This document shows, piece after piece, positions 27,648 through 56,626 of a stretch of 64,000 nt of DNA. Each line of letters starts with the position of its first letter. Position 1 is the stretch's first letter. The DNA is from Bacillota bacterium. Its GTDB lineage: Bacteria; Bacillota; JAAYKD01. The notes beneath the pieces were generated by a model. The model made no database searches, was not told the origin of the DNA, and saw nothing but the letters and a program-made list of their open reading frames with translations. The position numbers and the translations under genes are program-made. The stretch covers positions 2,808 to 66,807 of the forward strand of contig JAAYKD010000049.1 in NCBI GenBank assembly GCA_012522585.1, read 5' to 3'.

Positions 27648-28514
27648 TTAAAATTCTTCTCTTTGGCTGACTTGTATGATATTTTCCATTTCTAAATCTT
27701 CGATCTCTTCCATGGATTTTTCCAAAGCCATGAGTTCTTGGGTCAATTGACTCAATTCGAAACGCAGGCTTTCCTGACCCCAAGTCGTGGTATTGATCAG
27801 TCTGGCTCTTAAACTGGAAAGGGCACTCTCCAGGGTATCTAAATGAGCTTGCAAGAGAATACTGCTTTGACGGACTCTTTCCAGAGCTTTCAATTCCTGC
27901 TCCTTAAATTCAGCCGCTCGCCTGTATTGCAGCCCTGCTTCAAAACTGACAGCATGCTCAGCTTGGCGCAAAAGCCGGTCTGCTTCTTCTCTGATGGCTT
28001 GTAAATTTGAACTTTCCAAAAGAGAAGCGAGCCTTTGGTCTCGGTTTAAAAGCTCATAATAGCCTAGAAAACCGTTGATTGACTGAGTTAAAACTTCTTG
28101 GGTCAGAGGTTCATGCAAATCTTCGATGCGATTGAAATCAGCAAACATTTCCCTTTCCAGTTTGCGAATTCTATCGTAACGATTGCGCTGATAATTTGGC
28201 CTGGTTCGCTGCCTTTCGTATTTTCTCGAAGCTTCTCTTAAAGTTTTTTGTAAATCCGTTAGATTTTTTATGGTCCATTCTTTTTGGACCTTTTCCTTAA
28301 ATTCTTCTGAGAAAAGTGTTTTTAACCAAATCGAAATAAGGCCTATGCCTCCCGCTGCCAAAATAGCCAATCTCAGGGGCAAAAAAATCCAGGGGAGGCT
28401 AATGCCTCCACTGAAATTAATTACACCAATGATGGTTGCGATGACAATTAGAAAGGTCGCAGGCCTTAAAATCAAGGATTTTAAGTAATACGAAACCGGC
28501 GGCGATTTAATCAC
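27648..28514 (-). CDS. Membrane-anchored coiled-coil protein, partner of PspA (product unknown)
   Basis: Two N-terminal TM helices followed by about 200 aa of coiled coil. Its GTG start overlaps the pspA stop by 8 nt. Confidence 0.5.
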   Translation of the reverse strand: MIKSPPVSYYLKSLILRPATFLIVIATIIGVINFSGGISLPWIFLPLRLAILAAGGIGLISIWLKTLFSEEFKEKVQKEWTIKNLTDLQKTLREASRKYERQRTRPNYQRNRYDRIRKLEREMFADFNRIEDLHEPLTQEVLTQSINGFLGYYELLNRDQRLASLLESSNLQAIREEADRLLRQAEHAVSFEAGLQYRRAAEFKEQELKALERVRQSSILLQAHLDTLESALSSLRARLINTTTWGQESLRFELSQLTQELMALEKSMEEIEDLEMENIIQVSQREEF

Positions 28515-29289
28515 TGGGCCCCATCTCCTGCTTAATTTTCTCTAAGCGTTCTTTTACTTGTTCTTCTTCCAGAGTTCCGGCTTTTTCCAAGACTTCGGTC
28601 TCACTGATTTCAGCTAAGCCCATCTGAGCTTTTAATTGGGTTAGGCGCTCTTGAGCCTGCAGGCTCTTCAGATCATCCTGTAAGTTTGTAAATTCTGCAT
28701 TTAAATTGATGCTACCCATTTCTGTCAGAGCTTCTGCCCTAGCTTGCTTTTCTTGTATCTTTTCTCTGGCTCTCTCCCATGAATCTTCTGTTGTTTCAAA
28801 GGAAATACCACTCAAGGCTTCGTTCAACTTTTCTGTAATCTGAGCTTGCTTCCATTGAGTTTGTAATTGCAATTTTTCTCTGTATTTTGCCTGAACCTGA
28901 GCCTCAAAAGCTTTGACCTGCTTTTTGACCAGTTCACTGGCTTCTGTAGCTTTTTCAAATTGAGCTTGCAAAGAAGCAACAGTATCTTCCGATGCGATCA
29001 TCTGTTGCATGACTTGTTCAGCTAAATCATCTCGGCCCATTTGCAGAGCTTGCTTGACTTGAGCTTCCATTGTTTTGTATTTTTGTTCCTCGTCCCGCAA
29101 CATCAATTCAACCTGATTCTTTTGTTGAATCACCTGGATTGCCTGTTTGCGCACTTGGCCTTGTTTAGCCCGCAATTCATTTTGGGCTGCTTCCAAAATT
29201 GCATTGGGATCTTCAATAGCACTGATCCCCATACCGAACCACCCTTTTATGGTAATCCATAAACGGTTTAATAAACCCATATTCTTCAC
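28507..29289 (-). CDS. pspA: PspA/IM30 (phage shock protein A / LiaH-like) family protein
   Basis: N-terminal amphipathic helix followed by coiled coil in the PspA/IM30 arrangement. There is an AAGGAG RBS. Confidence 0.8.
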   Translation of the reverse strand: MKNMGLLNRLWITIKGWFGMGISAIEDPNAILEAAQNELRAKQGQVRKQAIQVIQQKNQVELMLRDEEQKYKTMEAQVKQALQMGRDDLAEQVMQQMIASEDTVASLQAQFEKATEASELVKKQVKAFEAQVQAKYREKLQLQTQWKQAQITEKLNEALSGISFETTEDSWERAREKIQEKQARAEALTEMGSINLNAEFTNLQDDLKSLQAQERLTQLKAQMGLAEISETEVLEKAGTLEEEQVKERLEKIKQEMGPSD

Positions 29290-29376: not shown

Positions 29377-29415
29377 AAAAAAAGAGCTCCGAGTCAATCG
29401 GAGCTCTTTTTTCTT
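29377..29415. terminator. Rho-independent terminator at the end of the FtsX/ABC operon
   Basis: aaaaaagagctccg-agtcaat-cggagctcttttttc. Confidence 0.8.
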
Positions 29416-29418: not shown

Positions 29419-30957
29419 TTATTTGCTTGTCTGAACCGAATTCTCCAATCGCGCTCTTCTTCGGCCCTGTTCCAAGTTTTTCTGATGTCGGATTTCATCT
29501 TGCAGAATATGAGCAGGATAAGGATAGCGACCGGCTTCAGGATCATCCGGCTTGATGGCCATATGCCCGCTGTCTCGGTTATACTCAACGACTTCCCCAT
29601 CACAAGGTGAACGCCATTCGTGATAACGCAAGCCTAAGTACATTTCCTGAGTGGCTACAACTTCTCCCTCTTTGACCCGGTCTCCAACTTCTTTCAAGAG
29701 GATTCCTTCGATCCGCCCATCTACTACATCAAATTTAAGGAATCGCAAATTTTCTTTGTCCTCACGCATTAAAATCCAACCGGTAGGTTTGGCCAGATGA
29801 TCGATATCCGTCCGAACAATCGGTATATTGCGGGCGAAGAGCAATTGGTTGACCGTTGCTACCTTGGCCAAGATGGTGGGGAAAGAAATAGCTGCGATCA
29901 TCACAGCCAAGGTGTAAAAGGAACCTTGCAAAACAAATTTAGCTAACTCAGAAGAAGGTATGGCACTAAACCAGCTGATTCTTTGGCCTAAAAGCATGAC
30001 AATGATCATCCCGGCAATAACACCGACTAATCCGGCTGAACCTTGTTCTAAGCCAAGAGCATAGACAATTTGACCGTTGGAAACACCAATCGACTTCATA
30101 ATGGCCAGTTCTCGCCTTCTTTCTAGGAAGGTTATAAAGGCAACGGTTAAAACACCGATTCCCATAAACATAAAAATCAAAACCAAAAGCCAGCGTCCCG
30201 GCTGAAAAATCTGTTGGAGTAAGGCTGTGCCCATATCCGTCGTCACCGTCGGATAGATTAAAACAGCGTCGGGATAAGCTGCCCTCATCCATTCCACCAG
30301 ATGAGGCAACTCTGATTCTGCCCTGTTATATTGAATGAAAAAACGGTTAGGAGCAGCATCCTGTCTGATCAGGGCTGCGCTTTCTGTTTTGATCAAGGGG
30401 AGATCAAGATCGTAATCTGTTTGATAAAAACCGGAAATAATAAATTTATATTGAACTTGGACTCCATCTTGCAAAATATTGTAGACATAAAATTCGTCGC
30501 CTAAGCTCAAGTCGAATTGATCAGCCATCTGACTGGGCAAAACAATATCATCTTCATCGACCAGCCAGTTGCCCTCGATCAAAAAATCAGACTTAAAAAA
30601 GTGACTATTCTCTTCTATACCTAACAGTTCTATTTGCCCAGTTTCACTTTTGACAATTATTGAACTGCCTGTTTCTGCTTTTTTCAGAATCGGTCTTCTG
30701 AATTTGGGAGTGGGCAATTGGCTTTCCGGTATAATCGGGCTGTTCTGATCTCCCATGACCATTAAATCATAGGGCAAGTTTAGCTCTACTGTTTGAGCAA
30801 CTCCAATTTGCGAAGAAACAGTCAGCATGCCGCTGTATAAGACGAAAAGGGCAAAGGAACCTGCTACCAAGATAAAAATTGTCAATAAACGCCAGCGCCA
30901 ACGCCAAATATTTTTCAAAGCCAATTGGGTGGTTGCAACGAAGGAAATCATGTTCAT
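29419..30957 (-). CDS. FtsX-like ABC permease (type B) with a ~135-aa cytoplasmic C-terminal barrel-sandwich/biotin-lipoyl-like domain
   Basis: 4 TM in FtsX topology with about 200 aa of extracytoplasmic loop after TM1. The C-terminus reads '…VGDRVKEGEVV…SPCDGEVVEY'. Its start overlaps the ATPase stop (ATGA). Confidence 0.7.
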   Translation of the reverse strand: MNMISFVATTQLALKNIWRWRWRLLTIFILVAGSFALFVLYSGMLTVSSQIGVAQTVELNLPYDLMVMGDQNSPIIPESQLPTPKFRRPILKKAETGSSIIVKSETGQIELLGIEENSHFFKSDFLIEGNWLVDEDDIVLPSQMADQFDLSLGDEFYVYNILQDGVQVQYKFIISGFYQTDYDLDLPLIKTESAALIRQDAAPNRFFIQYNRAESELPHLVEWMRAAYPDAVLIYPTVTTDMGTALLQQIFQPGRWLLVLIFMFMGIGVLTVAFITFLERRRELAIMKSIGVSNGQIVYALGLEQGSAGLVGVIAGMIIVMLLGQRISWFSAIPSSELAKFVLQGSFYTLAVMIAAISFPTILAKVATVNQLLFARNIPIVRTDIDHLAKPTGWILMREDKENLRFLKFDVVDGRIEGILLKEVGDRVKEGEVVATQEMYLGLRYHEWRSPCDGEVVEYNRDSGHMAIKPDDPEAGRYPYPAHILQDEIRHQKNLEQGRRRARLENSVQTSK

Positions 30958-31655
30958 CTGGGCCGCACCTCAATGTCCTCGATTTTACCGTCCATCATTG
31001 AAATTACCCGATGAGCATAAGAAGTAAGGCTCGTATCATGGGTAATCAGGACAAATGTCTGCTTCTCCGTTTCGTTAAAGCGACAGAATAATTCAATTAC
31101 CATGTCCCTGGTCTTGCTATCCAGATTTCCTGTCGGTTCATCGGCTAAAACGACGGCAGGTTTATTGGCCAAAGATCTGGCAATCGCCACTCTCTGTTGT
31201 TCACCCCCGGAAAGTTGATCGGGACGGTGATGGGATCGGGGAGTCAGACCGACTTCATCCAATAAAAATCTGGCTCTTTCTCTCGCTTCGTTCCTGGCCA
31301 TCCCGGAAATCGACATGGGTAATTCCACATTTTCCAAAGCACTCAAATGAGGTATCAGATTGAAAAACTGGAAGACATAGCCGATATTTTTACGTCGCAT
31401 CAAAGCCAATTCATCTTCATTTAATTTGACGATGGATTTGTCATTGATCAGAATATCTCCACTGATCGGTCGATCCAATCCGCCCAAAAGGCTGAGCAAG
31501 GTACTCTTACCGCTGCCTGAAGGGCCGACGATTATGGCAATTTCTCCCGGCATAACTTGGATGTTGACATTGTTAACGGCATAAACCGCTTCACCTAAAT
31601 AGAAGGCTTTGTTTAAATTTACAGTCTCGAGAATTGGGCGCTTAGTATTTTCCAT
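30954..31655 (-). CDS. ABC transporter ATP-binding protein (MacB/LolD-type NBD)
   Basis: Walker A 'GPSGSGKSTLL', signature 'LSGGEQQRVAIAR', Walker B 'VVLADEPT'. Confidence 0.9.
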   Translation of the reverse strand: MENTKRPILETVNLNKAFYLGEAVYAVNNVNIQVMPGEIAIIVGPSGSGKSTLLSLLGGLDRPISGDILINDKSIVKLNEDELALMRRKNIGYVFQFFNLIPHLSALENVELPMSISGMARNEARERARFLLDEVGLTPRSHHRPDQLSGGEQQRVAIARSLANKPAVVLADEPTGNLDSKTRDMVIELFCRFNETEKQTFVLITHDTSLTSYAHRVISMMDGKIEDIEVRPR

Positions 31656-31665
31656 ATTTATCCTC

Positions 31666-33120
31666 CTATTCGTTGCGCAAAACAGTCATGACCGACATAC
31701 CGGCCATCTTCAAAGCGGGCACTAAACCAAAAATTAAAGAAACAATACCAGTTGCCAATAAGACCTTGATCAAGTCTTCGCCAACTGAAGTCATCACAGT
31801 TAAAAACTTCTGACCATTGGTAAACTGATTCAAAGCTCCCGGTAGACGGAAAACCAGAAAACCGATTAAAGCTCCAAATAAAGCTAAGATCAAAGCTTCG
31901 GTCAAGGCCATGATGGTAATATCCAGACGCTTAGCGCCCACAGATTTTAAAATAGCCATCTCTCTTTTTCGCTCGTTGATCATGATCAGCATATTGGCTG
32001 CGACCAGCAAGGCTGCATTGAGTAGAACCAGGCCCATAATGGGCAAGCGCAAGTCCATTGCCATGCCTTGCTGAGTTGCTTTATGCTCGCTTGCTTCAAC
32101 CACCTGAGTAGGCACCGTGATAAACTTCTCAATCAGCTGCCTCTGCATAGCCATCAGGGCTTGATTGGGAACGCTCACGAAACTATAATCAGAAAATTCT
32201 TTGACTAAATTCAAGACCGTATCCTCTAAATAAGTTAGGTCATCGGCTTGCACAAGTACCTGAGAAATCGGATAAGCCAAATCGCCGGCACTTTCCTGCC
32301 AAATCTCCTGCCAAGTGCTCAAGGGGATCTGAATTTCATTGTTCCACCAGTATAGTCTCTCCGTCTGAGTATCCATTTCACCTTGCCAGCTAAATTCTCT
32401 GGTCGGGGCGACGAAGTTGCCAATCACTTTAAATTCTCGACGAATAGTATTGATATAATCGATTCTTATATCTTGATTTTTATCGAGTTTAAAAGTTGGA
32501 AATTCCAAATAAAAAACACTTCCCGGCTCAGGAGCCGCCATGCCTTGGGGCAGATCCATCATTCTTGAGATTATAGCGACATTTTGACCCTGGTCCCCTT
32601 CTTCAAAATAACGACCGCTATAGATCAAATCCTGCAAGGAATTGAGACGGTATTCCTCAGAAAAATCTCGCCCTCGGATGGGGGTTTCGACACGAAACTG
32701 CTCACTCAAAAGAGTAAAAGCAGGCAATCTATAATAAGGACTAACTGAGCTGACCCCTGAAGCTTGAGCCATCTCGACCAGATCTTCAGACTTAAAGTTG
32801 ACAGTTTGGGAACTGTTCAAATAACCTTGAGTAAAAATTTCCGGATGAAAAACATCAAGGTCAGTAAAAGGCTCCTCCGTTGGACGGTTAAATTCCCAAA
32901 AAGCATCGTCTTGGGGCATTTCACCCTGAATTTTTGAAGCATAGGCGATGGCTTCACCGCCTAAAACTTGACGAAACACGCTATAGGCTTCATGAGAATA
33001 GCCTCTGCTCAAACTGATTGTATAAGTTAAAAATGCAGCTGCCACTGCCATGGATGCTATTGCCAACACACTTCTGGCTAAATTTCTCCAAGCATTGACA
33101 GCGCCTAGACGAAAGAACAT
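31666..33120 (-). CDS. FtsX-like ABC permease (type A) with a large extracytoplasmic domain
   Basis: 484 aa with TM1, a ~330-aa extracytoplasmic domain, then 3 C-terminal TM helices. The N-terminus 'MFFRLGAVNAWRNL' matches its paralog at 35751. There is a GGAGG RBS. Confidence 0.75.
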   Translation of the reverse strand: MFFRLGAVNAWRNLARSVLAIASMAVAAAFLTYTISLSRGYSHEAYSVFRQVLGGEAIAYASKIQGEMPQDDAFWEFNRPTEEPFTDLDVFHPEIFTQGYLNSSQTVNFKSEDLVEMAQASGVSSVSPYYRLPAFTLLSEQFRVETPIRGRDFSEEYRLNSLQDLIYSGRYFEEGDQGQNVAIISRMMDLPQGMAAPEPGSVFYLEFPTFKLDKNQDIRIDYINTIRREFKVIGNFVAPTREFSWQGEMDTQTERLYWWNNEIQIPLSTWQEIWQESAGDLAYPISQVLVQADDLTYLEDTVLNLVKEFSDYSFVSVPNQALMAMQRQLIEKFITVPTQVVEASEHKATQQGMAMDLRLPIMGLVLLNAALLVAANMLIMINERKREMAILKSVGAKRLDITIMALTEALILALFGALIGFLVFRLPGALNQFTNGQKFLTVMTSVGEDLIKVLLATGIVSLIFGLVPALKMAGMSVMTVLRNE

Positions 33121-33123
33121 AGA

Positions 33124-34077
33124 TTAACCTCCGATTATTTCTGCCATTGTACCTATTTCAATATTACCTCCACTGAGCAAACAGACACAATTTTTATCAG
33201 CGATCTCCTGGTCATACTTCCAGTATGCTGCTAAAGTAATTGCCGCTGAAGGCTCAGCCCAGAGTTTCGTTGCTTCGATTAAGGCTCTTGTAGCCTCTCT
33301 GATTTCCTCTTCTTCAACAGAGATGACTTGATCGACATATTTTTTGGCTTGATGATAAGCTATTTGTCCGATCTTTTTAGATCTGATGCCATCGGCAATA
33401 CTGGGTTGCCATCTTTCCAACTCCCAAGGCTCTCCTTTAGCCAAGGCTAAGCGCAAACGAGAGCTTAGAACAGGCTCAACCCCAACTATTTTAGCTGAAC
33501 TTCCCAATTCTTTCAAGGCTGTAGCCACACCGGATAAGAGGCCTCCTCCACCGACCGGAACAAAAACATAATCCACTTGAGGCAAGGAGCGGAAAATCTC
33601 TAAACCGATGGTGCCTTGACCGGCCACTACATGGGGATGGTCATAGGGATGAATCAGGGTCATTCCTTGTAGGGCAAACTCTTCTGCTTTAGCCAATCTT
33701 TCCGTGGTGGTCAAACCATGAAAGACTACTTCAGCTCCATATTTTTGACAGGCTTTTACTTTAGCCGCTGAAGCGTCTTGGGGAACAACGATAACTGCTT
33801 TGGTTTGCAAAAGAGAAGCGGCATAGGACACGGCGATACCATGATTGCCGGAAGAGCCGGTGACTAAACCCTTTTTTAAATCTTCTTGAGTTAATTGTAC
33901 TGCACAATTGTAGGCCCCTCTAATTTTAAAAGACCCGGTCTTTTGCAAATTTTCGCATTTAAAATAGAGGCGACCTCTTTTCTCGCGACTCAAACTTTCG
34001 TTTTTTAGCAAGGGAGTTTCCAGGACAATATCTTCCAGATTCTTTTTGGCTTGATAGATCTCTTTGAGCCCCAGCAT
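33124..34077 (-). CDS. PLP-dependent threonine/serine dehydratase family enzyme
   Basis: 'FKCENLQKTGSFKIRGAYN' PLP-lysine motif. AGGAGG sits 7 nt before the ATG at 34077; the ORF-track start is a TTG. Confidence 0.8.
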   Translation of the reverse strand: MLGLKEIYQAKKNLEDIVLETPLLKNESLSREKRGRLYFKCENLQKTGSFKIRGAYNCAVQLTQEDLKKGLVTGSSGNHGIAVSYAASLLQTKAVIVVPQDASAAKVKACQKYGAEVVFHGLTTTERLAKAEEFALQGMTLIHPYDHPHVVAGQGTIGLEIFRSLPQVDYVFVPVGGGGLLSGVATALKELGSSAKIVGVEPVLSSRLRLALAKGEPWELERWQPSIADGIRSKKIGQIAYHQAKKYVDQVISVEEEEIREATRALIEATKLWAEPSAAITLAAYWKYDQEIADKNCVCLLSGGNIEIGTMAEIIGG

Positions 34078-34252
34078 AAATTCGCCTCCTAATTTTTCTT
34101 TCAATGTAAAATGTTTCGCTGAACGAAGAATTTTTCCTGCTTAATTTCCTCTTATCTCCTTTGAATTACCAGATTAAACAGAAAACGGCCAAATACAATA
34201 AAAAAATCTCTCTCTAAAACTCAAAACATTGAGATTTCAGAAAAAACAGATT

Positions 34253-35758
34253 TTAATCTCTCTTATTAAAACGAGGATAATTATGACGAGGGGCATCTTT
34301 ATCTGCAGGATCGATAATATATTTGCCATTGGCTTCATTATAGGATAAAACCCTTCCGTCAACAGGGGCCAGCCATTCTTCATAGACCAAGCCTCCCAAG
34401 GAATACTTAAAAGCTATAGTTTCACCTTTTTTGACCAGTTCATCGGGCCAGCGCAGGAGCACCGAGAGAGATCTTCCATCAACCACACTTAGTTTCAAGA
34501 TATGGGTGTTCTCCTCTTCCATCTCTCTGAGCCAATCTCCAGACGGATTGACTATATGATCATAAGAGCGTTTGAGCAAGGGGATTTCTCTTGAATATAA
34601 TAATTGATTTACTCCAGCCGCTTTGGCCAAGAGCAAAGGATAGATGATGGCCAGAATATAGAAAAACAAAACCAAAAGGATATTGATTAGAGAGAGCTGC
34701 AGAAACTTGTCCCAGGACAAGCTGGAGCTGGTCAAAGTGCCAAAAAGCAAAGCTGAACCCAGAAGACCAACAGCCAAACCAAAAACACCTGCAGCTCCGG
34801 CTTCGGCCAGAAAAAGCCCTAAGGCTTGATTGTTTCTGATTCCCAAAGTTTTGAAAATAGCCAATTCTTGTTTGCGCTCCAGGAAAGCCAAGAGGTTGAG
34901 GGTTAAAACTGCCACAGCCATAAAGATAAAGACCAGAAAAATCACCCAATTACCCGGACTTTGAATCACTCTGTTCAGTTCTTGAAAGCGTAAGAGGGGT
35001 GTTTCTTTTAAAATGAATTCTGCTCCGGGATAGAGCCGGGCCAGGGTGTTGTTAAAAAAGGTAAAATCCCTTAAATTATCAAAGCCACTGACTTGCAAAA
35101 ACTGACGATTGAGGTTTTTTTGCCCGCTTATTTTCTGAGCTGCTCCTAAACTGATTTGAGCTTGATCCAAATCGTAATGCTCTAAACCGATGGCGCTGAC
35201 AGTCAGGTTCAAACTTTCCTTAATACCCAGATCGTTTTTATAGAGAGCCACAAACTCATAGCCCAAGGCTAAATCGTATTGCTCGGCTAAGTTTTTAGGC
35301 AGATAAATTTCATCATCCTTTTCAGGCCAGCTACCCATGATCTTTCCTTGACGTAAAAATATGCTTTCCTCGGACACTCCCAAGACCTCAAACTCGCTCA
35401 AAGGAGTCTGAAGCTTCAAGGCTAAAGCGCTGTCACTGGCACTAACAGTCACAGGAATACTGGCACTGCGGCCCCGACTATACCCGGAAATATTGGCAGC
35501 ATAGGAAGCCAAGACGGGAAAATCCGTCAGGGGCCTTTGTCTTCCGGTCATTTGGATTTGCACATCATAGGGAATATTCAAAGGTCGAATCAAATCTGTT
35601 TTTCCTAGCCCTTGACTCTCCATCATACTGCCGTAGAGCAAAGCAACACTGACGCTGCCCGCTACCAAAGTTGCCATGAGCAGAAATCGCCAGCGCCAGC
35701 GCTTGATATTTCTGATTATTAAGCCACCAAGTGATAATGTGTCGAACCTCTTAATCAA
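34253..35758 (-). CDS. FtsX-like ABC permease (type B', paralog of 29419..30957) with the same C-terminal barrel-sandwich-like domain
   Basis: Same topology. N-terminal 'RNIKRWRWRF' matches 'KNIWRWRWRL'. The C-terminus reads 'KKGETIAFKYSLGGLVYEEWLAPVDGRVLSY'. Confidence 0.7.
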   Translation of the reverse strand: MIKRFDTLSLGGLIIRNIKRWRWRFLLMATLVAGSVSVALLYGSMMESQGLGKTDLIRPLNIPYDVQIQMTGRQRPLTDFPVLASYAANISGYSRGRSASIPVTVSASDSALALKLQTPLSEFEVLGVSEESIFLRQGKIMGSWPEKDDEIYLPKNLAEQYDLALGYEFVALYKNDLGIKESLNLTVSAIGLEHYDLDQAQISLGAAQKISGQKNLNRQFLQVSGFDNLRDFTFFNNTLARLYPGAEFILKETPLLRFQELNRVIQSPGNWVIFLVFIFMAVAVLTLNLLAFLERKQELAIFKTLGIRNNQALGLFLAEAGAAGVFGLAVGLLGSALLFGTLTSSSLSWDKFLQLSLINILLVLFFYILAIIYPLLLAKAAGVNQLLYSREIPLLKRSYDHIVNPSGDWLREMEEENTHILKLSVVDGRSLSVLLRWPDELVKKGETIAFKYSLGGLVYEEWLAPVDGRVLSYNEANGKYIIDPADKDAPRHNYPRFNKRD

Positions 35759-37283
35759 GTCTGAGCACCTCCATCACCGGTAATTTGGCATATTTTCGGG
35801 CTGGCATCCAACCAAAGAGCAGAGCTGCCGCGAGAGAAACCGTCAGGACGGTCAGGAAATCTCTAAAAAACAGGAGCAGCAGATAAAACAGACCCATGGG
35901 ATTGGTCAGCTGATTGAGCACTGCCTGAATTCTGATAAAGAGAAAGCCGAAGGAAGCACCCAAAGCTGTAATCAAAGCGGCCTCAGCCAAAATCATCAAA
36001 ATTATTTCCTTTTCTCTGGCTCCGATCGCTTTCAAAATAGCAATTTCATCCTTGCGTTCGGAAACTAATATTAAAATATTGGCAGCCACTAACAAACCTG
36101 CATTGATCATGACTAAAAGGGTTATGGGTTTGCGTAAATCAGCCTGGATTACTGTTTGTTGAACTAAGGAGCTGCGCTCCTGTAACATGGCCCTGGCTCC
36201 GGCTGGAATCTTGGGCTCCAAGCTGAGATTGTCGTGGATTTGTTTTTGATATTCGGGCAAGCCATGAAAGCTGAACTGGGGAAATTCTCTTTGTAAATCG
36301 TAAACTATATCCTGGAGATAACTCAAATCCTTGACTTCTAATAAAACTTCAGCCGGCTTAAAATCAGCATAGGGGCTTAAAGATTGCCAAATCTCCAACC
36401 AAGTCTCTTGAGGCAAATAGAATTCATTAAAATAGACGTAAATCTCCTCGGTCACCCAGCCGTCTATGCCCACTTCGTAATCGACAGTCCGACTGACCAC
36501 ACTCAAATGGCCGATGATTTCCACTTCAATTTCTTCAGCATCAGTAAAATCAACATTCCACTTGTGCCCTAGATCATTGATTTTTGGTAATTTTATTCGC
36601 ACCTTTTGACCTACAGCGGGGGTTTTAGCCAGGCCCTGTAAATTCATGTTTTCAGAAATCACAGCCACATATTTACCCTGATCTTCAGGGGAGAACCAAC
36701 GACCTTGAACTATCGAACTCTCCAGGGAGTAACGGTCCTCTTCCTGACAAGCCTTGGCTTGCAGACCAATTGCAGTCAAAACGTCGGGGCCTTGAGTGGA
36801 ACCATCTTCCCCTTGCACCAACAAATGAGGAGGCAAAGGTGTCTTCAAAGCGTCTAAATCAACCTGCTGAGCCATTTCAGCCGGCAGCCTATATAAGGGC
36901 TTGGCTGCAACAACAAAAGGCTGCTCAGCCAGTTTTTCTAAATCTGTTAAATCAAACTCCCTGAGAGCTTGGCTGGGCTTTAAAAAGCCTGTTTGGGCTA
37001 ATTGGGGCTGAAGATAATTGAGGCTGGCAAAAGGGCTCACTGCCCCTTGTTCGAATTCCCATTCTTCCTGCTGAGAAGAAAAATCAGCCGTTGTTTTCAT
37101 CGCCTGAACCAGTATTTCCCCACCTAACATAGAACTCAGCGGTTGACCGGCATGTTGGGCATAGCCTTTGCTCAAGCTGACGGTAAAGGTAAAGAACGAG
37201 GCGGCTAAAGCCATCGCTAAAATAGCTAAAATGCTGCGTTGCAGATTTCTCCAGGCATTTTGAAAACCGAGTCTTATAAACAT
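35751..37283 (-). CDS. FtsX-like ABC permease (type A', paralog of 31666..33120)
   Basis: N-terminus 'MFIRLGFQNAWRNLQRS'. Its stop and the next gene's start overlap by 8 nt. Confidence 0.7.
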   Translation of the reverse strand: MFIRLGFQNAWRNLQRSILAILAMALAASFFTFTVSLSKGYAQHAGQPLSSMLGGEILVQAMKTTADFSSQQEEWEFEQGAVSPFASLNYLQPQLAQTGFLKPSQALREFDLTDLEKLAEQPFVVAAKPLYRLPAEMAQQVDLDALKTPLPPHLLVQGEDGSTQGPDVLTAIGLQAKACQEEDRYSLESSIVQGRWFSPEDQGKYVAVISENMNLQGLAKTPAVGQKVRIKLPKINDLGHKWNVDFTDAEEIEVEIIGHLSVVSRTVDYEVGIDGWVTEEIYVYFNEFYLPQETWLEIWQSLSPYADFKPAEVLLEVKDLSYLQDIVYDLQREFPQFSFHGLPEYQKQIHDNLSLEPKIPAGARAMLQERSSLVQQTVIQADLRKPITLLVMINAGLLVAANILILVSERKDEIAILKAIGAREKEIILMILAEAALITALGASFGFLFIRIQAVLNQLTNPMGLFYLLLLFFRDFLTVLTVSLAAALLFGWMPARKYAKLPVMEVLRLD

Positions 37284-37379: not shown

Positions 37380-37431
37380 AACAATTAAATATAAATAACA
37401 AGAGGAAAAGAAAAAATCTTTTCCTCTTGTT
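37380..37431. terminator. Bidirectional rho-independent terminator at the 3' end of the lysine-fermentation operon
   Basis: aacaagaggaaaag-aaaaaatc-ttttcctcttgtt, flanked by A/T runs. Confidence 0.8.
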
Positions 37432-37448
37432 ATGAGAGTATTTGCTTT

Positions 37449-38114
37449 TTAAGATTGGAGAGGCGGACCAAAATCCTTCAAATCATGGCTGACCTGGAAT
37501 TCCGCTTCCGTCTTTTCTCTGATTTCGTCAACTGTAACTCCCTTGCGTTTTTCAATTAAGAGCAATCCGCCTTTAGTGATATCGAAAACGGCAAGTTCGG
37601 TCACAATTTTATGAACCTTTTTGTAAGCGGTTAAAGGCAACTTACAAGTTTTCAGGATTTTTTTAGCGTCCCCTCGAGCCGTATGAGTCGTTACAACGAT
37701 GACCTTTTTAGCTCCGGCGACTAAATCCATAGCGCCTCCCATGCCGGGCACCATTTTTCCCGGAATGATATGGCTGGCCAAGGAACCTTCTTGGTCTATT
37801 TCCAGAGCACCTAAAATAGTCAGATCAAGATGCCCGCCTCTGATGATGGCAAAAGACAAGGCGCTGTCGAAGAAGCTGGCATAGTCTTTAACTGTGACCA
37901 TGGCTGCTCCGGCATTGACGATGTCCGGATTTTGCTCTTCCGGGGAGGCCATTTTATCCATGCCCATAATACCGTTTTCCGATTGAAAGACTGCATGCAC
38001 ATCTTCGGGAATAAAATTGGCGACCATGGTGGGGATGCCGATTCCTAGATTGACTACATCACCATCTTTAATTTCTAAGGCTGCCCTTCTGGCAATGACT
38101 TCTCTCGCGTCCAT
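37449..38114 (-). CDS. ctfB: 3-oxoacid (butyrate-acetoacetate) CoA-transferase subunit B
   Basis: 221 aa, CoA-transferase family I beta subunit. Adjacent to subunit A. Confidence 0.85.
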   Translation of the reverse strand: MDAREVIARRAALEIKDGDVVNLGIGIPTMVANFIPEDVHAVFQSENGIMGMDKMASPEEQNPDIVNAGAAMVTVKDYASFFDSALSFAIIRGGHLDLTILGALEIDQEGSLASHIIPGKMVPGMGGAMDLVAGAKKVIVVTTHTARGDAKKILKTCKLPLTAYKKVHKIVTELAVFDITKGGLLLIEKRKGVTVDEIREKTEAEFQVSHDLKDFGPPLQS

Positions 38115-38116
38115 AA

Positions 38117-38770
38117 TCAGTCTCCTTTCACGATATAATCGACAAAGATACCGGGTGTCGCTACATCTTCCGCTTTGATTTCTCCAATATTGACGTAACT
38201 ATCAGCAGTAGCTAAAACTAAATCTGCAGCCATAGCCATTAGAGGATTGAAATTTCTGGTCGTTCCGTGATAGTAAAGATTGCCAAAGGGATCGATTTTA
38301 CTGCCGTGGATCAGAGCAATATCGGCTCTTAAGGGAGTTTCTAAAAGATAATTTTGGCCATCCACCTCAATTACTCTTTTCCCTTCAGCCACGTGAGTGT
38401 TCATGCCGGTAGCTGTTAAGACACCACCTAGACCGGAACCGCCGCAACGAATTTGCTCGGCTAAGGTGCCTTGAGGCACTAACTCCACTTCCAATTCACC
38501 GGCCCCCATCTGACGACCGGTTTCCGGATTGGTACCGATATGGGAAACTATGACTTTTTTAGCTTTTTGATCAGCGATCAAGCGGGAAATACCTATTTCC
38601 GGCAAGGCTGTGTCGTTGGCTATGATGGTGTAATCTTTTACACCCGAAGCGAGAATTGCATCGATTAAAAGTTCCGGTGTACCATTACCTAAAAAGCCAC
38701 CAATCATGATGGTCATGCCATCACAGAAATGTCTTTGCGCCTCTTCAAGAGAAATTATCTTGTTTATCAT
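38117..38770 (-). CDS. ctfA: 3-oxoacid (butyrate-acetoacetate) CoA-transferase subunit A
   Basis: 217 aa with N-terminus 'MINKIISLEEA…GMTIMIGGF'. Confidence 0.85.
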   Translation of the reverse strand: MINKIISLEEAQRHFCDGMTIMIGGFLGNGTPELLIDAILASGVKDYTIIANDTALPEIGISRLIADQKAKKVIVSHIGTNPETGRQMGAGELEVELVPQGTLAEQIRCGGSGLGGVLTATGMNTHVAEGKRVIEVDGQNYLLETPLRADIALIHGSKIDPFGNLYYHGTTRNFNPLMAMAADLVLATADSYVNIGEIKAEDVATPGIFVDYIVKGD

Positions 38771-38788
38771 TTCATCTCCCCCTCATGA

Positions 38789-39631
38789 TCAGCTATATTG
38801 ATAAAAGCCCTCGTTGGATTTTCGACCCAGTTTTCCAGCCCGCACCATTTTCTTCAAGAGCAGATGAGGACGATATTTAGGATCGAGAGTTTCATCGTGC
38901 AGCACATTTAAAATATCTAAAACTATATCCAGACCGATAAAATCTGCCAGAGCTAAGGGTCCCATAGGATGATTAGCTCCCAATTTCATGGCTGTATCTA
39001 TGTCCTCGGGAGTGGCAACTCCTTCGGCTAAGACTGCCACCGCTTCGTTGATCATGGGAATCAGCAAACGATTGACCACAAAGCCGGGTGCTTCTTCAAC
39101 CTGCACCGATGTTTTCCCCAGAGCTTCAACTATCTTTTGACATTGAGCCAGGGTTTCATCGGAGGTACGCTCCCCTTTGATCAGTTCGACTAATTTCATC
39201 ACCGGTGCCGGGTTGAAAAAGTGCATCCCGATAAAAGCAGTGGGGTCAGGTGAGTGAGCAGCCAATTCGGTTATGGATAGACTGGATGTGTTGCTGGCCC
39301 AGATAGGTTGACCCAAGTTCAGTTCTTTTAATTCTTGGAAGAGCTTTTTCTTGATCTCCGCTCTTTCCGCTACAGCCTCGATGACCAAATCAACTTGACC
39401 CGGCAGCTCCCTTAAATCTTCTAAGAGGTTGAGGTTGTTCAAAATAAGATCTTTATCAGCAACAGTCATCCGCTCTCTGGATACTTGACGTTCTAAGATT
39501 TTCTCAATAGCCACTTTAGCCTTGATTGTAACTTCATTGTTGACATCGTAAAGATAAGTTGGGCCGATACCTGCAAAGCATTGGGCTATACCACTGCCCA
39601 TGGTGCCGGCTCCGATGACCAAAACACGCAT
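38789..39631 (-). CDS. hbd: 3-hydroxybutyryl-CoA dehydrogenase
   Basis: 'MRVLVIGAGTMGSGIA' Rossmann N-terminus. GGAGGGG sits 6 nt before the ATG at 39631; the longer ORF-track entry would overlap crt. Confidence 0.9.
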   Translation of the reverse strand: MRVLVIGAGTMGSGIAQCFAGIGPTYLYDVNNEVTIKAKVAIEKILERQVSRERMTVADKDLILNNLNLLEDLRELPGQVDLVIEAVAERAEIKKKLFQELKELNLGQPIWASNTSSLSITELAAHSPDPTAFIGMHFFNPAPVMKLVELIKGERTSDETLAQCQKIVEALGKTSVQVEEAPGFVVNRLLIPMINEAVAVLAEGVATPEDIDTAMKLGANHPMGPLALADFIGLDIVLDILNVLHDETLDPKYRPHLLLKKMVRAGKLGRKSNEGFYQYS

Positions 39632-39647
39632 ATTAGCCCCTCCTCGT

Positions 39648-40421
39648 TTATTTTGCATTCTGTTTGTCCAAAAAGGATTGCATTCTTTCCTTCTGGTCAG
39701 GATGAGCAAAGCAAGCTTTAAAATGTTCGGCTTCCTGCAAGAAATCAGCAGCCGATGCGTCGGCATGAGCATAGGCAAAGATATTGGTCAGTTTATCAAT
39801 GGCGACTTGGCTGTTGTTGAGGATGCGTTTCAAAGTATCGTCTAACATTTCTTCCAATTCCTCAGGCTGAGCTAAGAGCTCAACTAAACCAATGCGATAA
39901 GCCTCTTCGCCACCGACTGTTTTTCCTGTGTACATCATATATTTAGCTCTGCCTTCACCGATTAAACGGCCTAAACGAAAGACTCCGCCAAAACCTGGGA
40001 TGATGCCTAAGCCTGTTTCCGGTAAAGCAAAACGGGCATTAGGAGTAGCAATCCGAATATCACAGGCTATAGCCAATTCCATACCGCCCCCTAGAGCATA
40101 ACCGTGGACCACAGCTATGGTCGGGATAGGCAGTTGCTCCAATTGAGCAAAGACTCGATTGCCAAACATGGAAAAATCAAAAGCTTGTTCAGGGGTATAA
40201 TCGACCATTTCAGAAATATCCGCTCCGGCAACAAAAGCTCTGTTGCCTGAACCTCTGATCACTAGGCAGCGATAGTCGGGATGCTCTCCCACTTCTCTGA
40301 TCGCTGTGCTGAGTTCTGAAAGCACTTCGGTGTTCAAAGCATTTAAAGCTTGGGGACGAGTAATCGTCAAGGTTATAACATTGTTTTCTACTGAGGTTTT
40401 AATATACTTCATTTTAAACAC
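39648..40421 (-). CDS. crt: Short-chain enoyl-CoA hydratase (crotonase)
   Basis: 257 aa, crotonase fold (…[15 protein letters not shown]…). Confidence 0.85.
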
Positions 40422-41607: not shown

Positions 41608-41636
41608 TTTCTTTTCCCCTTCCTCATATTTAAATC

Positions 41637-42386: not shown

Positions 42387-42405
42387 TTTTCACACCTCTT
42401 TTTCC

Positions 42406-53600: not shown

Positions 53601-54722
53601 CTATTCTTCAATCAATTCGACGTTGGCCCTGGGCACAGTTACGATTTCACCATTGCGCAAACGCACGTTCATGATTCTTACTCGAGCACCAGTTTCGATA
53701 ACAAACAGCTCAGGTGGTAAGTCCACAACTTCTGCCAATTGACCAAAATAGGGTTCACGGATGCAACGAACCAAAGTTCCAGCGTCCATGCTGCCGTCCA
53801 AAGCTGCTTCAATTTCATCTACATCGATGGACTCATCGGGTACAATGATTTCCGGACGCATAACACCGGCACGAATTTGAGTAGCACCGTTGATCGAAGC
53901 ATGCTTTCCGTCTAAAGCAGTGAGGAGTTCAAAGGTCTTGTGAGCCATATTGATTTCACCAAAACCTTCGGTTGTGATTAAAGTAAAGGGTACATCTTCG
54001 TGACCTGTGATGGCAACACCAATATCATAACCTAAGAATTTAACCAAGTCGCTATCGATGATTCCACCGACAACAATACCGCGTGCTCCAACTTGAGCTG
54101 CTTTTTGAATAGCTTCATAGGTTACTAAGCTGCCGCCGACGAGGATACAACCTTCGTGAGAATCATTGATATGATGAGCATCTAAAACTGTGTTTTCGTC
54201 TTCTACAACAACTTTTAAGATGCCTTCACGTTCGCCGCCGACCCCGAAGATACCCTGAATAAAGGCACCCTTGGTTTCAACTGTAACGCCTTCCCGTTCG
54301 ATAATATCGACAACTGTGCCTTCAATATAGGCATGCATTGTAATAGGCATGGCGGGTTCACGAATGATTACCTGACCGGTAACTTCAGAGATATGCTCAA
54401 CTGTTCCTGAAACAGGTGATTTTACTTCAGTTTTAAAGAGGCCAAAGAATGATTTAGCCAATGCCAGTGTTTCATCTTTTTCGACTGTGTCACCAGCTTT
54501 TTTCTGCATGAAGGGTTCAATATCTTCAGCTTCGACGCCTAAGATATTAGCAACGTTAATAGATTGAGGGTTACCAGGGATGTACGCCTTAGCAACGGGA
54601 GTATCGGGGTGCACTCTGGCACCTTTTTGAACCAAAACTTCACCGGGGATAGGAAGACGACGAACCTTGGATATTCTTGAGGCAGAAGTTACCTTCAGAC
54701 CCGGAGTATATGCACTAGCCAT
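53601..54722 (-). CDS. Hypothetical protein, partner of the GlmL-like ATPase
   Basis: 373 aa. Its start lies 30 nt downstream of the preceding gene's stop. No family recognised. Confidence 0.4.
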   Translation of the reverse strand: MASAYTPGLKVTSASRISKVRRLPIPGEVLVQKGARVHPDTPVAKAYIPGNPQSINVANILGVEAEDIEPFMQKKAGDTVEKDETLALAKSFFGLFKTEVKSPVSGTVEHISEVTGQVIIREPAMPITMHAYIEGTVVDIIEREGVTVETKGAFIQGIFGVGGEREGILKVVVEDENTVLDAHHINDSHEGCILVGGSLVTYEAIQKAAQVGARGIVVGGIIDSDLVKFLGYDIGVAITGHEDVPFTLITTEGFGEINMAHKTFELLTALDGKHASINGATQIRAGVMRPEIIVPDESIDVDEIEAALDGSMDAGTLVRCIREPYFGQLAEVVDLPPELFVIETGARVRIMNVRLRNGEIVTVPRANVELIEE

Positions 54723-54751: not shown

Positions 54752-56626
54752 TTATTGCGCTGTGTTCATGTAGCGTTCCAATACATCCATCGGATAGATG
54801 TCCAACGCCTTGAACCATTCAACGAGCTTGGCAATCCGTGTTTGTTTATCAGTAGGTAAGTTGAAGGGACGGCGACCGCGAGCATCTATGATGATACCGC
54901 CGGCTGCTCCGCCTCTGATTTTTTTATGAACGGCACGTCCTTTGCCATTACCCATATCAAACATATTGGTTGGAATAACTTCTACTTCAGCATAATCATC
55001 ATGTCCCAGCGGGATGGTATCCATAGCACCGTAGGGAACTTCTCTTGTTACAGTTTCGCCATTGGGCATTTTAGCTTTGACAGTTACACATTTGTCGCCG
55101 TCTTTTTGAGCATTGCCAATGGGAACAATAGCAGTAGCCAAGAAAATCAGGCAGTCACGGGCAAAAACTTCTGCAGCTGCTGTAGGGTGAACGTCAGAAA
55201 GTACGCCCAATTGAGGTGTCATAAAGATAGAGTCAACTGTCAACTCAGTAAAGCCTTCCAATTGGAAAGCATCCAACATCATCAAAGCAGTTTGTTGACG
55301 ACGAGGAGCATGAGATAAAACTCCGCCGGAGCCAACGATCATGCCCAGTTTATCCAATTCAATGATGGAGTCGCTGGAAGAGCTTTGATCGAATGCTTCT
55401 GCAATATCACGAACTTTTTGGACACCTTTGAGGCCTGTGGCCAAGGATTTGTGGTGAATGAAAGACAAGCGCAGGGCTTCTCTGGCAACGCTTTGTTCGA
55501 TGACCAATTCTTCCAATGTCTGGGGAACTGTAGTCGGACGAATCATCTTATTACGGATACGGTTGCGCAAATCACCTTCATCAATATCAAAGGGGACCCA
55601 TTGCATGATATTATCTACGCCTGCTTCAAGCAAGACGTTACAGATGGAATAGCTCATACCTAAGTTAGCTGAAACTGTTCTGTTGAAATATTCATGATCA
55701 TCACCGAAAACGGAGAAGATGTCAGTAGTAGCTCCGCCAATATCAACACCGATAATATGAATGTTGTATTGTTCAGCAGTTGTTTGGATGATACGACCAA
55801 CTGCACCGGGTGTGGGCATGATGGGCACTTCAGTCCATTGCATCAACTTGTTGTAACCGGGAGCTTGAGCCATAACGTGTTCCATAAAGAGGTTATGAAT
55901 CTCTTCACGAGCCGGTCCTAGAACTTCAACTTCCAGAACAGGACGAAGGTTGTCGACAATTCTCAAGTCAACTTTCTTTTCTAAGATGTCACTGATATAT
56001 TTGCGAGCATCTTTGTTACCTGCGAAGATAATAGGCAGATTATAACCAATCCCCAAACGAGGTCTCGGTTCGGCTGCAGAAATCAATTCTCCAATTTCAA
56101 CAACGTGGGTGATTGTTCCGCCATCGATACCACCGGATAAGAGAATCATATCCGGACGCAATTGGCGAATACGCTCGATTTTTTCGTAAGGTTTACGACC
56201 GTCATCAATTGAAATGGCGTCCATAACGATAGCACCTGCACCCAAAGCTGCACGTTGAGCGGATTCGGCGGTCATTGTTTTAACGACGCCTGCTACCATC
56301 ATCTGTAAGCCTCCGCCGGCTGATGAGGTGGACAAATAAATATCTACACCTGTGCCGTCGGGTTGACGCGGGGTGATGACACCGTCAGGTCCTAGGAAAG
56401 TGTTACCAACTAATTCTTCAAGTTCGTGTACCGCATTGCGGACACCGGCAGTAACGTCTTCAAAGGGGGCTTCGACGGTTGTCGGAGATTCTCCACGGTT
56501 AATCAAACGATAGACTCCATCAATCTTTTCAATCAAGATTGCTTTGGTCGTTGTTGATCCACAGTCCGTGGCAATAATGGAATTAATTTCGCGAGTTATA
56601 GGGGCTCGCTTTACTTCATGAGCCAT
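54752..56626 (-). CDS. GlmL/MutL-family (hydantoinase-A-like, ASKHA) ATPase
   Basis: Two ASKHA phosphate motifs: N-terminal 'IATDCGSTTTKAIL' and internal 'IIGVDIGGATTDIFSV'. 624 aa. Confidence 0.55.
   Translation of the reverse strand: MAHEVKRAPITREINSIIATDCGSTTTKAILIEKIDGVYRLINRGESPTTVEAPFEDVTAGVRNAVHELEELVGNTFLGPDGVITPRQPDGTGVDIYLSTSSAGGGLQMMVAGVVKTMTAESAQRAALGAGAIVMDAISIDDGRKPYEKIERIRQLRPDMILLSGGIDGGTITHVVEIGELISAAEPRPRLGIGYNLPIIFAGNKDARKYISDILEKKVDLRIVDNLRPVLEVEVLGPAREEIHNLFMEHVMAQAPGYNKLMQWTEVPIMPTPGAVGRIIQTTAEQYNIHIIGVDIGGATTDIFSVFGDDHEYFNRTVSANLGMSYSICNVLLEAGVDNIMQWVPFDIDEGDLRNRIRNKMIRPTTVPQTLEELVIEQSVAREALRLSFIHHKSLATGLKGVQKVRDIAEAFDQSSSSDSIIELDKLGMIVGSGGVLSHAPRRQQTALMMLDAFQLEGFTELTVDSIFMTPQLGVLSDVHPTAAAEVFARDCLIFLATAIVPIGNAQKDGDKCVTVKAKMPNGETVTREVPYGAMDTIPLGHDDYAEVEVIPTNMFDMGNGKGRAVHKKIRGGAAGGIIIDARGRRPFNLPTDKQTRIAKLVEWFKALDIYPMDVLERYMNTAQ

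Follow-up and report, generated by a model that had tools for sequence, protein, structure and literature searches.

The window analysed here, the whole 64-kb stretch of contig JAAYKD010000049.1 from a Bacillota bacterium, contains six open reading frames (ORFs) that are all located on the minus strand and encode, in this order, two FtsX-type permeases (A′ and B′), an enzyme dependent on pyridoxal phosphate (PLP), a third permease (A), a nucleotide-binding domain (NBD) ATPase of an ATP-binding cassette (ABC) system and a fourth permease (B). An initial annotation, made from the letters of the DNA, had proposed this gene order, with the PLP gene embedded between two permease pairs, and ORF calling reproduced both the coordinates and the arrangement. 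The features are collected in Table 1, where coordinates follow the forward numbering; loci and proteins used for comparison are designated L0xx and P00xx.

Table 1. Coordinates of the six genes, their parts and flanking signals, and of related features in the window and in comparison loci (TM, transmembrane segment; BSH, barrel-sandwich hybrid).
Feature	Locus	Coordinates	Strand	Remarks
A′ permease	window	35751..37283	−	510 aa; ribosome-binding site GGAGG 7 nt ahead of ATG
B′ permease	window	34253..35758	−	501 aa; first 8 nt overlap the end of A′
B′ C-terminal cytoplasmic region	window	34256..34621	−	predicted from alignments; residues 380–501; post-TM4 motif GVNQLLYSREIPL and BSH domain; no terminal helix
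PLP enzyme	window	33124..34104	−	fold-type II, without ACT domain; probable start ATG 34077
A permease	window	31666..33120	−	484 aa
NBD	window	30954..31655	−	233 aa; 4-nt overlap with the start of B
B permease	window	29419..30957	−	512 aa; predicted cytoplasmic C-terminal domain
B BSH (lipoyl/biotinyl-like) domain	window	29542..29820	−	residues ~380–472; predicted cytoplasmic; no cofactor lysine
B long charged C-terminal helix	window	29425..29514	−	residues 482–511; predicted from model and alignment; absent from B′
Intrinsic terminator, 5′ boundary	window	37395..37433	−	17-bp stem and T run; ends the upstream lysine-fermentation operon after the CoA-transferase gene
Bidirectional terminator, 3′ boundary	window	29378..29412	.	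15-bp palindromic stem between A and T runs; directly 3′ of B
373-aa soluble protein	window	53601..54722	−	outside the operon; N-terminal domain homologous to the B C-terminus (profile E ~1e-11), weak KOW-like C-terminus
GlmL/MutL-like ATPase (PF13941)	window	54752..56626	−	outside the operon; 624 aa; partner of the 373-aa protein; scores under every GlmL cutoff
Extended B permeases	L011; L018; L020; L027	9959–12883; 612–3503; 7635–11882; 8001–12122		BSH and TM5, then M14 (~970 aa in total) or HlyD (1,370–1,415 aa)
Histidine kinase and regulator	L029; L031; L033; L041	5257–7817; 73–2513; 151–2585; 3722–6158
Fragments of second PLP enzyme	L005; L010; L028	14733–15248; 14381–14593; 20789–21001

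As can be seen, a terminator lies on either side of the gene group; no terminator-like sites were found in the gaps between the six genes. Since terminators flank the genes and none separates them, the six genes are likely to be transcribed together; a promoter in the B′-PLP interval would at most split them into two units. The PLP stop codon precedes the start of A by 3 nt, and this spacing is 3–4 nt when the relatives L009, L007, L010, L005 and L028 are included. Alignment of the B′-PLP intergenic region across six relatives revealed no conserved element, and an Rfam scan of the operon gave no match. The pspA gene that follows was considered as a further member of the operon and rejected because the terminator at 29378–29412 intervenes.

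FtsX (PF02687) was matched above the Pfam gathering score by all four permeases, and A′ additionally matched MacB_PCD (PF12704). A and A′ are 35% identical over 513 columns, that is, over the full length (E 5e-78), and B and B′ are 35% identical over 495 columns (E 4e-79), values far beyond chance that bear out the initial view of two heterologous permease pairs in which A/A′ and B/B′ are paralogs. Between A-type and B-type permeases, BLAST found only the FtsX transmembrane core in common; at the profile level the alignment of the two types extends through the extracytoplasmic domain (hhalign, 97.9%). Hydropathy and the structural model give the standard MacB topology, with a cytoplasmic N-terminus and four TMs, the extracytoplasmic domain being placed between TM1 and TM2–4. 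This domain is ca. 345 aa in A′ and ca. 320 aa in A (ca. 200–345 aa across permeases), as large as had been supposed for these two proteins. The AlphaFold 2 (AF2) model of B (predicted local distance difference test score, pLDDT, of 87) retrieved LolE/LolC, YtrF, HrtB, MacB and YbbP as top Foldseek matches, and also the isolated periplasmic domains of LolC (5naa), LolE (5udf), MacB (3ftj) and YknZ (5f9q). The A-family profile matched the transmembrane regions of MacB, a Spr0695-type permease, LolF, YtrF and LolC in PDB. Based on these matches and on the A–B profile alignment, A is predicted to have the same architecture as B with ca. 100 extra residues outside; for the Porter/Sabre-type domain of A the evidence is solely the profile–profile alignment to B. 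The features of a type VII ABC system (4-TM FtsX permeases, a Porter/Sabre-type extracytoplasmic domain and a MacB/LolD/FtsE-type NBD) are thus all found here. In about 25 loci A and B always form an adjacent pair, with A first and the genes usually overlapping, and the neighbor-joining trees of A and B are congruent with high bootstrap values. A·B and A′·B′ are presumed to be heterodimers.

The NBD matches ABC_tran in Pfam, its best NCBIfam match is LolD (TIGR02211; 243 bits, below the cutoff of 308), and its best PDB matches are MJ0796, a Spr0694-type protein and LolD; it is an ATPase of the LolD/MacB/MJ0796 type. Walker A, the Q-loop, LSGGE, Walker B and the H-loop are all present. Searching the 64-kb window by tblastn returned no second MacB-type NBD and no further copy of A or B, in agreement with the initial count of one NBD gene for the locus. 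The NBD is by far the best conserved of the transporter proteins: orthologs are 87–90% identical, as against 63–68% for A, 53–62% for B, 49–55% for A′ and 39–43% for B′.

We compared gene order over a base of ca. 40 loci, many of them on short contigs. The layout of the window, A′B′-PALP-A-NBD-B, where PALP stands for the PLP gene and two pairs are accompanied by one NBD, recurs in L009, L007, L010 and L028, and in L005 it is shortened to PALP-A-NBD-B by deletion of A′B′. The remaining arrangements are A-B-NBD (L016, L017), A-B-A-B-NBD (L019, L024), A-B-NBD-A-B (L030), A-B-A-NBD-B-A-B (L011/L023, three pairs with one NBD) and A-B without an adjacent NBD (L006, L014, L015, L020, L021, L025, L027). 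The search for the A-NBD-B triad in other genomes, which had been suggested as a check, thus found it in relatives of several layouts.

Trees of A and of B (numpy p-distance neighbor joining, 100 bootstraps), also proposed as a check, were congruent and placed AB and A′B′ in separate clades. The AB pair adjacent to the NBD falls in the clade of PALP-linked triads (100/100), while A′B′ forms a clade of its own with four species in the tree (100/100), L028 being the fifth by gene order. The A′B′ clade groups, again with 100/100 support, with pairs from second loci (L016, L017, L019) that have their own NBD. Since it groups with these pairs and not with the adjacent AB, A′B′ is not a tandem copy but an old separate subfamily that stands beside AB. 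The wording of the initial annotation, which had spoken of a tandem duplication, has accordingly to be dropped: the paralogs are only 35% identical, and the assignment of A′B′ to a different subfamily, which speaks against a recent copy of AB, is supported by 100/100 bootstraps in both the A and the B tree.

A′ orthologs in L009, L007 and L010 are 49–55% identical to that of the window, and B′ orthologs are 39–43% identical and share the same 8-nt overlap. All 42 invariant columns of the A family are kept in A′, and all 28 of the B family are kept in B′. The idea that A′B′ is a decaying, non-functional duplicate, raised at the outset as a way in which the interpretation could fail, appears to us hardly credible. 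It is true that A′B′ evolves faster than AB, as the identities given above show, and that it was lost in L005; however, both ORFs are full length and have the conserved overlap, a good ribosome-binding site precedes A′, every family-invariant residue is kept, including the coupling-helix motif ER(K/R)xE(I/L)A..K, and the pair is conserved in the window, L009, L007, L010 and L028, at least five species in all.

Following TM4, B and B′ carry a domain of ca. 120–145 aa, which the alignment and the AF2 model confirm as the fused C-terminal domain noted initially. Directly after TM4 lies the most conserved motif of the family, VNQLLFARxIPL, with the consensus (A/G)(T/S/G)(V/I)NQL(L/I/V)..R.IP. The model of the domain (pLDDT 90.7) is a barrel-sandwich hybrid, followed in B only by a long charged helix, and Foldseek matched it with the N-terminal BSH domain of NqrA, BCCP, GcvH and DUF2118. 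The domain profile matches GcvH with an E value of 0.005; where GcvH has its lipoyl-lysine, the B family has an aromatic or hydrophobic residue. Across 22 sequences the hairpin-tip position (ESVK/MKM) shows no conserved lysine, so the domain lacks the carrier lysine; its invariant residues are G431, E432, G442 and G454. Because the lipoyl-lysine column does not hold lysine, the BSH domain of B is predicted to carry no cofactor.

An exhaustive HMMER search of 1.84 billion representatives retrieved 197 proteins that match the domain, and ca. 100 of these are FtsX fusions in which it occupies the same position. Some of the fused B proteins are longer than that of the window. Those of ca. 960–985 aa have a hydrophobic fifth TM and a Peptidase_M14 domain, and those of ca. 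1,170–1,420 aa continue through a TM-like segment into an HlyD/membrane-fusion region with multiple repeats (the domains were checked for P0042, P0056, P0038 and the ORFs of L011, L018 and L020). Since the BSH domain of these relatives is placed between TM4 and a TM5 that leads to M14 or HlyD outside, it is predicted to be cytoplasmic and the added enzymes extracytoplasmic. The HlyD-extended B is in effect a MacB-like permease fused to its own adaptor.

The remaining matches of the profile are soluble proteins of 370–415 aa with the BSH domain at the N-terminus. In L029 the operon order is histidine kinase (252 aa), AraC-type response regulator, A, NBD, a short B, a GlmL/MutL-like protein (PF13941) and a stand-alone BSH protein. 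The A protein of this locus is 30% identical to A and A′ of the window and its NBD is 59% identical. Its B of 412 aa retains the VNQLL..IPL motif and ends there, and the BSH domain of the 413-aa stand-alone protein is 43% identical to residues 402–469 of B. A scan of metagenomes with the stand-alone family (BLAST and Pfam mapping) revealed the same cassette in L031, L032 and L033, the order B-GlmL-like-BSH protein in L035, NBD-GlmL-like-BSH protein followed by a regulator and then A-NBD-B-GlmL-like in L036 and L039, and other adjacent combinations of these genes in L038, L040 and L042. Since type VII ABC parts lie beside the stand-alone protein in nine of the ten informative loci fetched with it, the domain that is fused to B in the window is, on this evidence from gene neighborhoods, provided in trans in other lineages, where a GlmL-like ATPase accompanies it.

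The window itself contains such a pair, the 373-aa protein and the GlmL-like ATPase, 16 kb from the operon. The 373-aa protein is 25–32% identical over its full length to the stand-alone proteins found with the profile and to the 413-aa protein of L029, and orthologs of the GlmL-like protein (48–50% identical) directly follow an A-NBD-B triad, the second one, in L036 and L039. The family of the 373-aa protein has at least 8,000 matches at ca. 60% identity in Bacillota metagenomes, all of them called “hypothetical”. Because it is so widespread in Bacillota, a functional link of the pair to this particular operon is only a possibility. A role of the GlmL-like protein as the reactivase of lysine 5,6-aminomutase was also considered and is unlikely, since KamB and KamC are encoded in addition to it.

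A short histidine kinase (PF06580 and HATPase, 252–302 aa) and an AraC-type regulator precede the cassettes of ABC, GlmL-like and BSH genes in four of the comparison loci (Table 1). The length of the kinase leaves no room for a sensor domain in the membrane, an arrangement reminiscent of kinases that depend on a transporter, such as BceS. Another recurrent neighbor, a protein of ca. 450 aa, is encoded directly upstream of A-B in L020 (4675–6018), L025 (7101–8486) and L027 (5156–6493). These proteins share 29–35% mutual identity and match no family; two of the three have lipoprotein signal peptides (LTGC, LVGC) and the third has a signal sequence that contains a cysteine. The proteins of L025 and L027 were considered as members of the stand-alone BSH family and rejected, since they do not match the profile and have lipoprotein signal peptides. 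NCBIfam and Pfam gave nothing for the stand-alone BSH proteins, the ca. 450-aa lipoprotein, a 609-aa protein of L011 or the 288-aa partner of PspA described below.

The PLP enzyme matches PALP in Pfam with 280 bits, remains below the cutoff of all NCBIfam equivalogs, and has two tied best matches in PDB, the serine racemase 6lut and TdcB 2gn0; it can thus be assigned provisionally to the Ser/Thr dehydratase or serine racemase subfamily. The probable start codon at 34077 is preceded by AGGAGG 8 nt upstream and gives a protein of 317 aa, as in the orthologs, which are 62–65% identical and occupy the same position in L009, L007, L010, L005 and L028. The junction of the PLP gene with A is tight in all six genomes (the window and the five relatives), and the region is collinear in them. 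Over the family as a whole, the PLP gene is adjacent in one clade, loosely near in a second and absent from the others examined.

It had been suggested initially that the presence of the PLP gene points to a specialised substrate, an amino-acid-derived compound or peptide. On this reading the PLP gene would be a functional part of the system, and what the transporter handles would be made or used by its enzyme. The short spacing to A without an intervening terminator in the six genomes agrees with this, as do a 54%-identical homolog 2.3 kb upstream of the cluster in L011 and the richness of the family neighborhoods in enzymes and transporters of peptides and amino acids (the M14 fusion, Opp genes, M20, M42, ATP-grasp). 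The five genomes with tight adjacency are, however, collinear over more than 15 kb, from PspA through Hsp33 and a gene of the metallo-beta-lactamase fold, and the PLP adjacency may therefore be inherited synteny. Moreover, the gene is absent from L016, L017, L019, L024, L030, the Symbiobacteriaceae loci and loci of the L029 type; the host ferments amino acids and would be expected to have a catabolic Ser/Thr dehydratase in any case; and the substrates of type VII ABC systems lie in the membrane or outside the cytoplasm and are not cytoplasmic metabolites (PMC5985334). A functional part for the enzyme thus seems improbable to us. We read the PLP gene as co-transcribed and probably not required mechanistically; the linkage is one of synteny within a clade, and the amino-acid-derived substrate stays a conjecture.

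In the comparison of the operon with described systems, every curated equivalog (LolCE, LolD, MacB, FtsX) scores far below its cutoff. The initial annotation had called a separate NBD with two different FtsX partners atypical; this does not hold, for the order is that of LolCDE, and the known layouts of the MacB superfamily include NBDs encoded apart from the permeases as well as heterodimers of the LolCE kind (PMC5985334). With LolCDE the operon shares two different 4-TM permeases with the Porter/Sabre domain, a separate ATPase and the permease-NBD-permease order; B has LolE/LolC as its best structural matches, and among curated families the NBD comes closest to LolD. It differs from LolCDE in its scores (19–23 bits for lolCE, TIGR02212, against a cutoff of 362, besides the LolD value given above), in the greater divergence of A and B, which BLAST aligns in the transmembrane core only, in the extracytoplasmic domain of A, larger by ca. 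100 aa, in the cytoplasmic BSH domain of B and in having several pairs with fewer NBDs. The permease fold and NBD family are the same in the adaptor-dependent pumps MacAB, YknXYZ and pneumococcal Spr0693-0695, and the HlyD-type adaptors fused to some B homologs would argue for a MacA-like conduit in those members; by contrast, those pumps are homodimers, the NBD of MacB is fused N-terminally, and the window operon has no adaptor gene. Neither the operon nor the other ORFs scanned in the window gave an HlyD-family match; such matches came solely from fused homologs in other clades (P0038, L020). We know of no cytoplasmic BSH domain described for MacAB, YknXYZ or Spr0693-0695. FtsEX, BceAB-BceS and YbbAP-TesA resemble the present system in mechanotransmission with control of partner enzymes or kinases, and the M14 fusions and short-kinase cassettes recall them; FtsX_Gpos and FtsX_actino nevertheless score 19–21 bits against cutoffs of 225–250, the extracytoplasmic domains of ca. 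200–345 aa are unlike the short one of FtsX, to which a hydrolase activator binds, and neither a hydrolase nor a kinase is encoded in the window operon.

Two further comparisons concern single parts of the operon. In energy-coupling factor transporters, the EcfAA′T module is shared. The ATPases MsmX/MsiK serve several type I sugar importers (PMC7658222), and MceG serves Mce1 and Mce4 (PMC9947336). These systems, like the present operon, combine one ATPase gene with several membrane modules, but they are importers or Mce systems and belong to other ABC types. The BSH domain, on the other hand, resembles the lipoyl/biotinyl domains, GcvH, the N-termini of NqrA/RnfC and the lipoyl domains of membrane-fusion proteins in its fold and in the GE...(S/A)P.DG hairpin motifs. 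It differs from them in lacking a modifiable lysine, in its cytoplasmic position after TM4 of a permease and in its nearest sequence relatives, the uncharacterised 370–415-aa proteins paired with GlmL-like ATPases. Searches of the literature gave no account of a BSH domain fused to FtsX, of GlmL together with FtsX or of MacB-type systems that share an ATPase.

We propose that the genes form a single terminator-bounded operon that would give rise to two heterodimeric type VII ABC machines in the style of LolCDE, A·B and A′·B′, each of which would contain two copies of a LolD/MacB-type ATPase, with both machines probably drawing on the same protein. No solute would be carried through the membrane; instead, ATP hydrolysis in the cytoplasm would move the large extracytoplasmic domains, which would act at the outer face. 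Our guess is that the machines extract or expel a peptide-like or amphipathic compound of the envelope and that the two pairs differ in specificity. The cytoplasmic BSH domain of B, coming right after the VNQLLFARxIPL motif, would dock or regulate at the face of the ATPase. Taken as a whole, two heterodimeric type VII machines in one operon with a probably shared ATPase are the best explanation of the data, and we consider it somewhat probable.

Sharing of the ATPase, already suggested in the initial annotation, fits the family, since permease pairs outnumber adjacent NBD genes in many loci (2:1, 3:1 or a pair without an adjacent NBD), and A′ and B′ keep the coupling-helix motif. The paralogous NBDs of the two locus types are 77–80% identical, as compared with 34–40% between their permeases and those of the window. 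One ATPase for both pairs is the most likely arrangement, and a near-identical paralog elsewhere in the genome could serve as well. Several points weigh against this interpretation. The stoichiometry is a proposal, and sharing is inferred from gene counts and NBD conservation; NBD genes outnumber permease pairs in L036 and L039, so gene counts alone are no proof of sharing, and NBDs are generally better conserved than transmembrane domains, so the high identity is suggestive only. The B′-PLP gap of 148–175 nt, depending on the start of the PLP gene, could hold a second promoter, and a promoter scan was uninformative (15 sites found against 15.6 expected from shuffles). The operon has no HlyD adaptor, peptidase or lipoprotein gene, which leaves the PLP gene as the only clue to a substrate. 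Finally, the same-operon relatives with L016, L017 and L019 carry a second NBD elsewhere, beside similar permeases, which the initial annotation had named as evidence against sharing; A′B′ is closer to that locus type and may use that NBD. A second NBD is also present in L024, a relative without A′B′, and these second NBDs show the same 77–80% identity to the operon NBDs.

It is thus possible, although we do not expect it, that A′B′ is served in trans by the paralogous NBD of an A-B-NBD-type locus and that the NBD of the operon works for A·B only, with nothing shared. The grouping of A′B′ with pairs of A-B-NBD and A-B-A-B-NBD loci and not with the adjacent AB would be explained in this way, as would the second locus in three same-operon relatives and the retention of PALP-A-NBD-B in L005 after the loss of A′B′. 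On the other hand, even then the pairs exceed the NBDs, with ratios of 3:2 in the genomes with L009/L016 and L007/L017 and 4:2 in the complete chromosome OY762825 (L010 and L019), and the second-locus NBD would therefore itself be shared. Discrimination between partners is not evident from NBD paralogs so similar to one another, and for the organism of the window no second locus was seen in the 64 kb searched. As for function, extraction or expulsion is weakly favored over the control of a hydrolase. An FtsEX-like regulator, in which ATP-driven motion of the extracytoplasmic domains governs a hydrolase or peptidase of the envelope or is relayed to the cytoplasm via the BSH domain, would account for the B homologs fused via a fifth TM to an extracytoplasmic M14 peptidase (L011, L018, P0042, P0046, P0058, P0066, P0087) and for the kinase and regulator preceding the cassette in L029, L031, L033 and L041, reminiscent of BceAB-BceS. 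We nevertheless consider it rather unlikely: the window operon has no hydrolase or two-component genes, no partner protein was identified, and the conduit-like HlyD fusions appear commoner than the peptidase fusions by length class (domain content having been checked for P0038, P0042 and P0056 only). Much more doubtful is a Lol-like system for lipoprotein release in a diderm Bacillota lineage. It would agree with the permease-NBD-permease order, the structural matches to LolE/LolC, the LolD-like NBD, the ca. 450-aa lipoprotein gene ahead of A-B in L020, L025 and L027 and the label Negativicutes of some source metagenome-assembled genomes (MAGs). These labels are unreliable, however, and the scores fall far below the LolCE and LolD cutoffs; no LolA/LolB or outer-membrane marker was detected among window ORFs of at least 150 aa scanned against Pfam, and neither several pairs per genome nor fusions to BSH, M14 and HlyD fit a Lol system. 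An envelope-directed role is indicated by the fused M14 and HlyD domains and by the neighboring lipoproteins.

A wider interpretation, which we put forward tentatively and do not hold to be probable, is that the operon represents a novel class of type VII machines in which several permease heterodimers operate on a common ATPase while the cytoplasmic face is wired to further machinery via a BSH adaptor. The adaptor would be fused here and supplied in trans elsewhere as the BSH/KOW protein beside a GlmL-like ATPase of the actin fold, sometimes with a short histidine kinase, and the whole would be a two-way device for mechanotransduction or signalling at the envelope and no simple exporter. Type VII ABC systems (MacB, LolCDE, FtsEX, BceAB, HrtBA, YbbAP) are few, and each new one has turned out to have a different envelope function. 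Three features of the present one were not found described: a cytoplasmic BSH domain fused to the permease, the link by fusion and fission to a GlmL-like ATPase and a widespread Bacillota protein, and heterodimers that regularly exceed the ATPase genes in number. If sharing of the ATPase holds, the “multitask NBD” idea extends from importers to mechanotransmission machines. The operons with split genes also offer the first functional handle on the pair of 373-aa and GlmL-like proteins, the former belonging to a family very common in Bacillota metagenomes and without annotation.

The permeases are rare. A search of 5.8 billion protein clusters gave 30 full-length relatives for B and 39 for A, and in both cases these are followed by the same drop to generic FtsX proteins; no relative has been given a name that implies a function, and metagenomes or MAGs are the source of all of them. 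With one genome per species (185,579 species), 16 loci were found; the eight MAG assemblies that hold them bear the labels Bacillota, Eubacteriales, Clostridia or Symbiobacteriaceae. The A/B family thus appears to be restricted to uncultured Bacillota, and the operon can be regarded as a rare, previously undescribed branch of MacB/LolCDE-type ABC machines.

The organism of the window comes from an anaerobic digester and is predicted to ferment amino acids, as it has the full lysine-to-butyrate pathway, peptidases and asparaginase. The lysine-fermentation operon (37449–47523, minus strand) consists of a 133-aa ORF (47122–47523), BKACE (46278–47105), a 344-aa dehydrogenase, KamA, KamDE, thiolase, crotonase, HBD and CoA-transferase AB, and ends at the terminator that forms the 5′ boundary of the permease operon. 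Directly upstream of it lies a lysine riboswitch (RF00168, 64.8 bits; 47560–47734, minus strand), which, on a degradation pathway, would need to switch on with lysine. The reactivase genes KamC (47776–49242) and KamB (49224–50291) are located just upstream of the riboswitch.

On the other side of the permease operon, the gene of PspA/IM30 (28507–29289, minus strand) overlaps by 8 nt with that of a 288-aa protein (27648–28514, minus strand) that has N-terminal TM-like segments and a long coiled coil. This pair is kept beside B in L002, L005, L007, L010 and L028. A second PLP enzyme (25910–26890, minus strand) resembles D-cysteine desulfhydrase/1-aminocyclopropane-1-carboxylate deaminase, with 7ysk as the best PDB match; it is intact in the window, L002 and L007 and is reduced to fragments of 60–109 aa, apparently by pseudogenisation, in three relatives (Table 1). 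An ORF of 317 aa (4803–5756, minus strand) combines DUF123 (residues 24–110) with a nitroreductase from residue 151 onward, which is an unusual fusion. A transglutaminase-core protein (24508–25893, minus strand) with a C-terminal domain similar to the N-terminal domain of copper amine oxidase (PF07833) is kept in the syntenic block of all close relatives.

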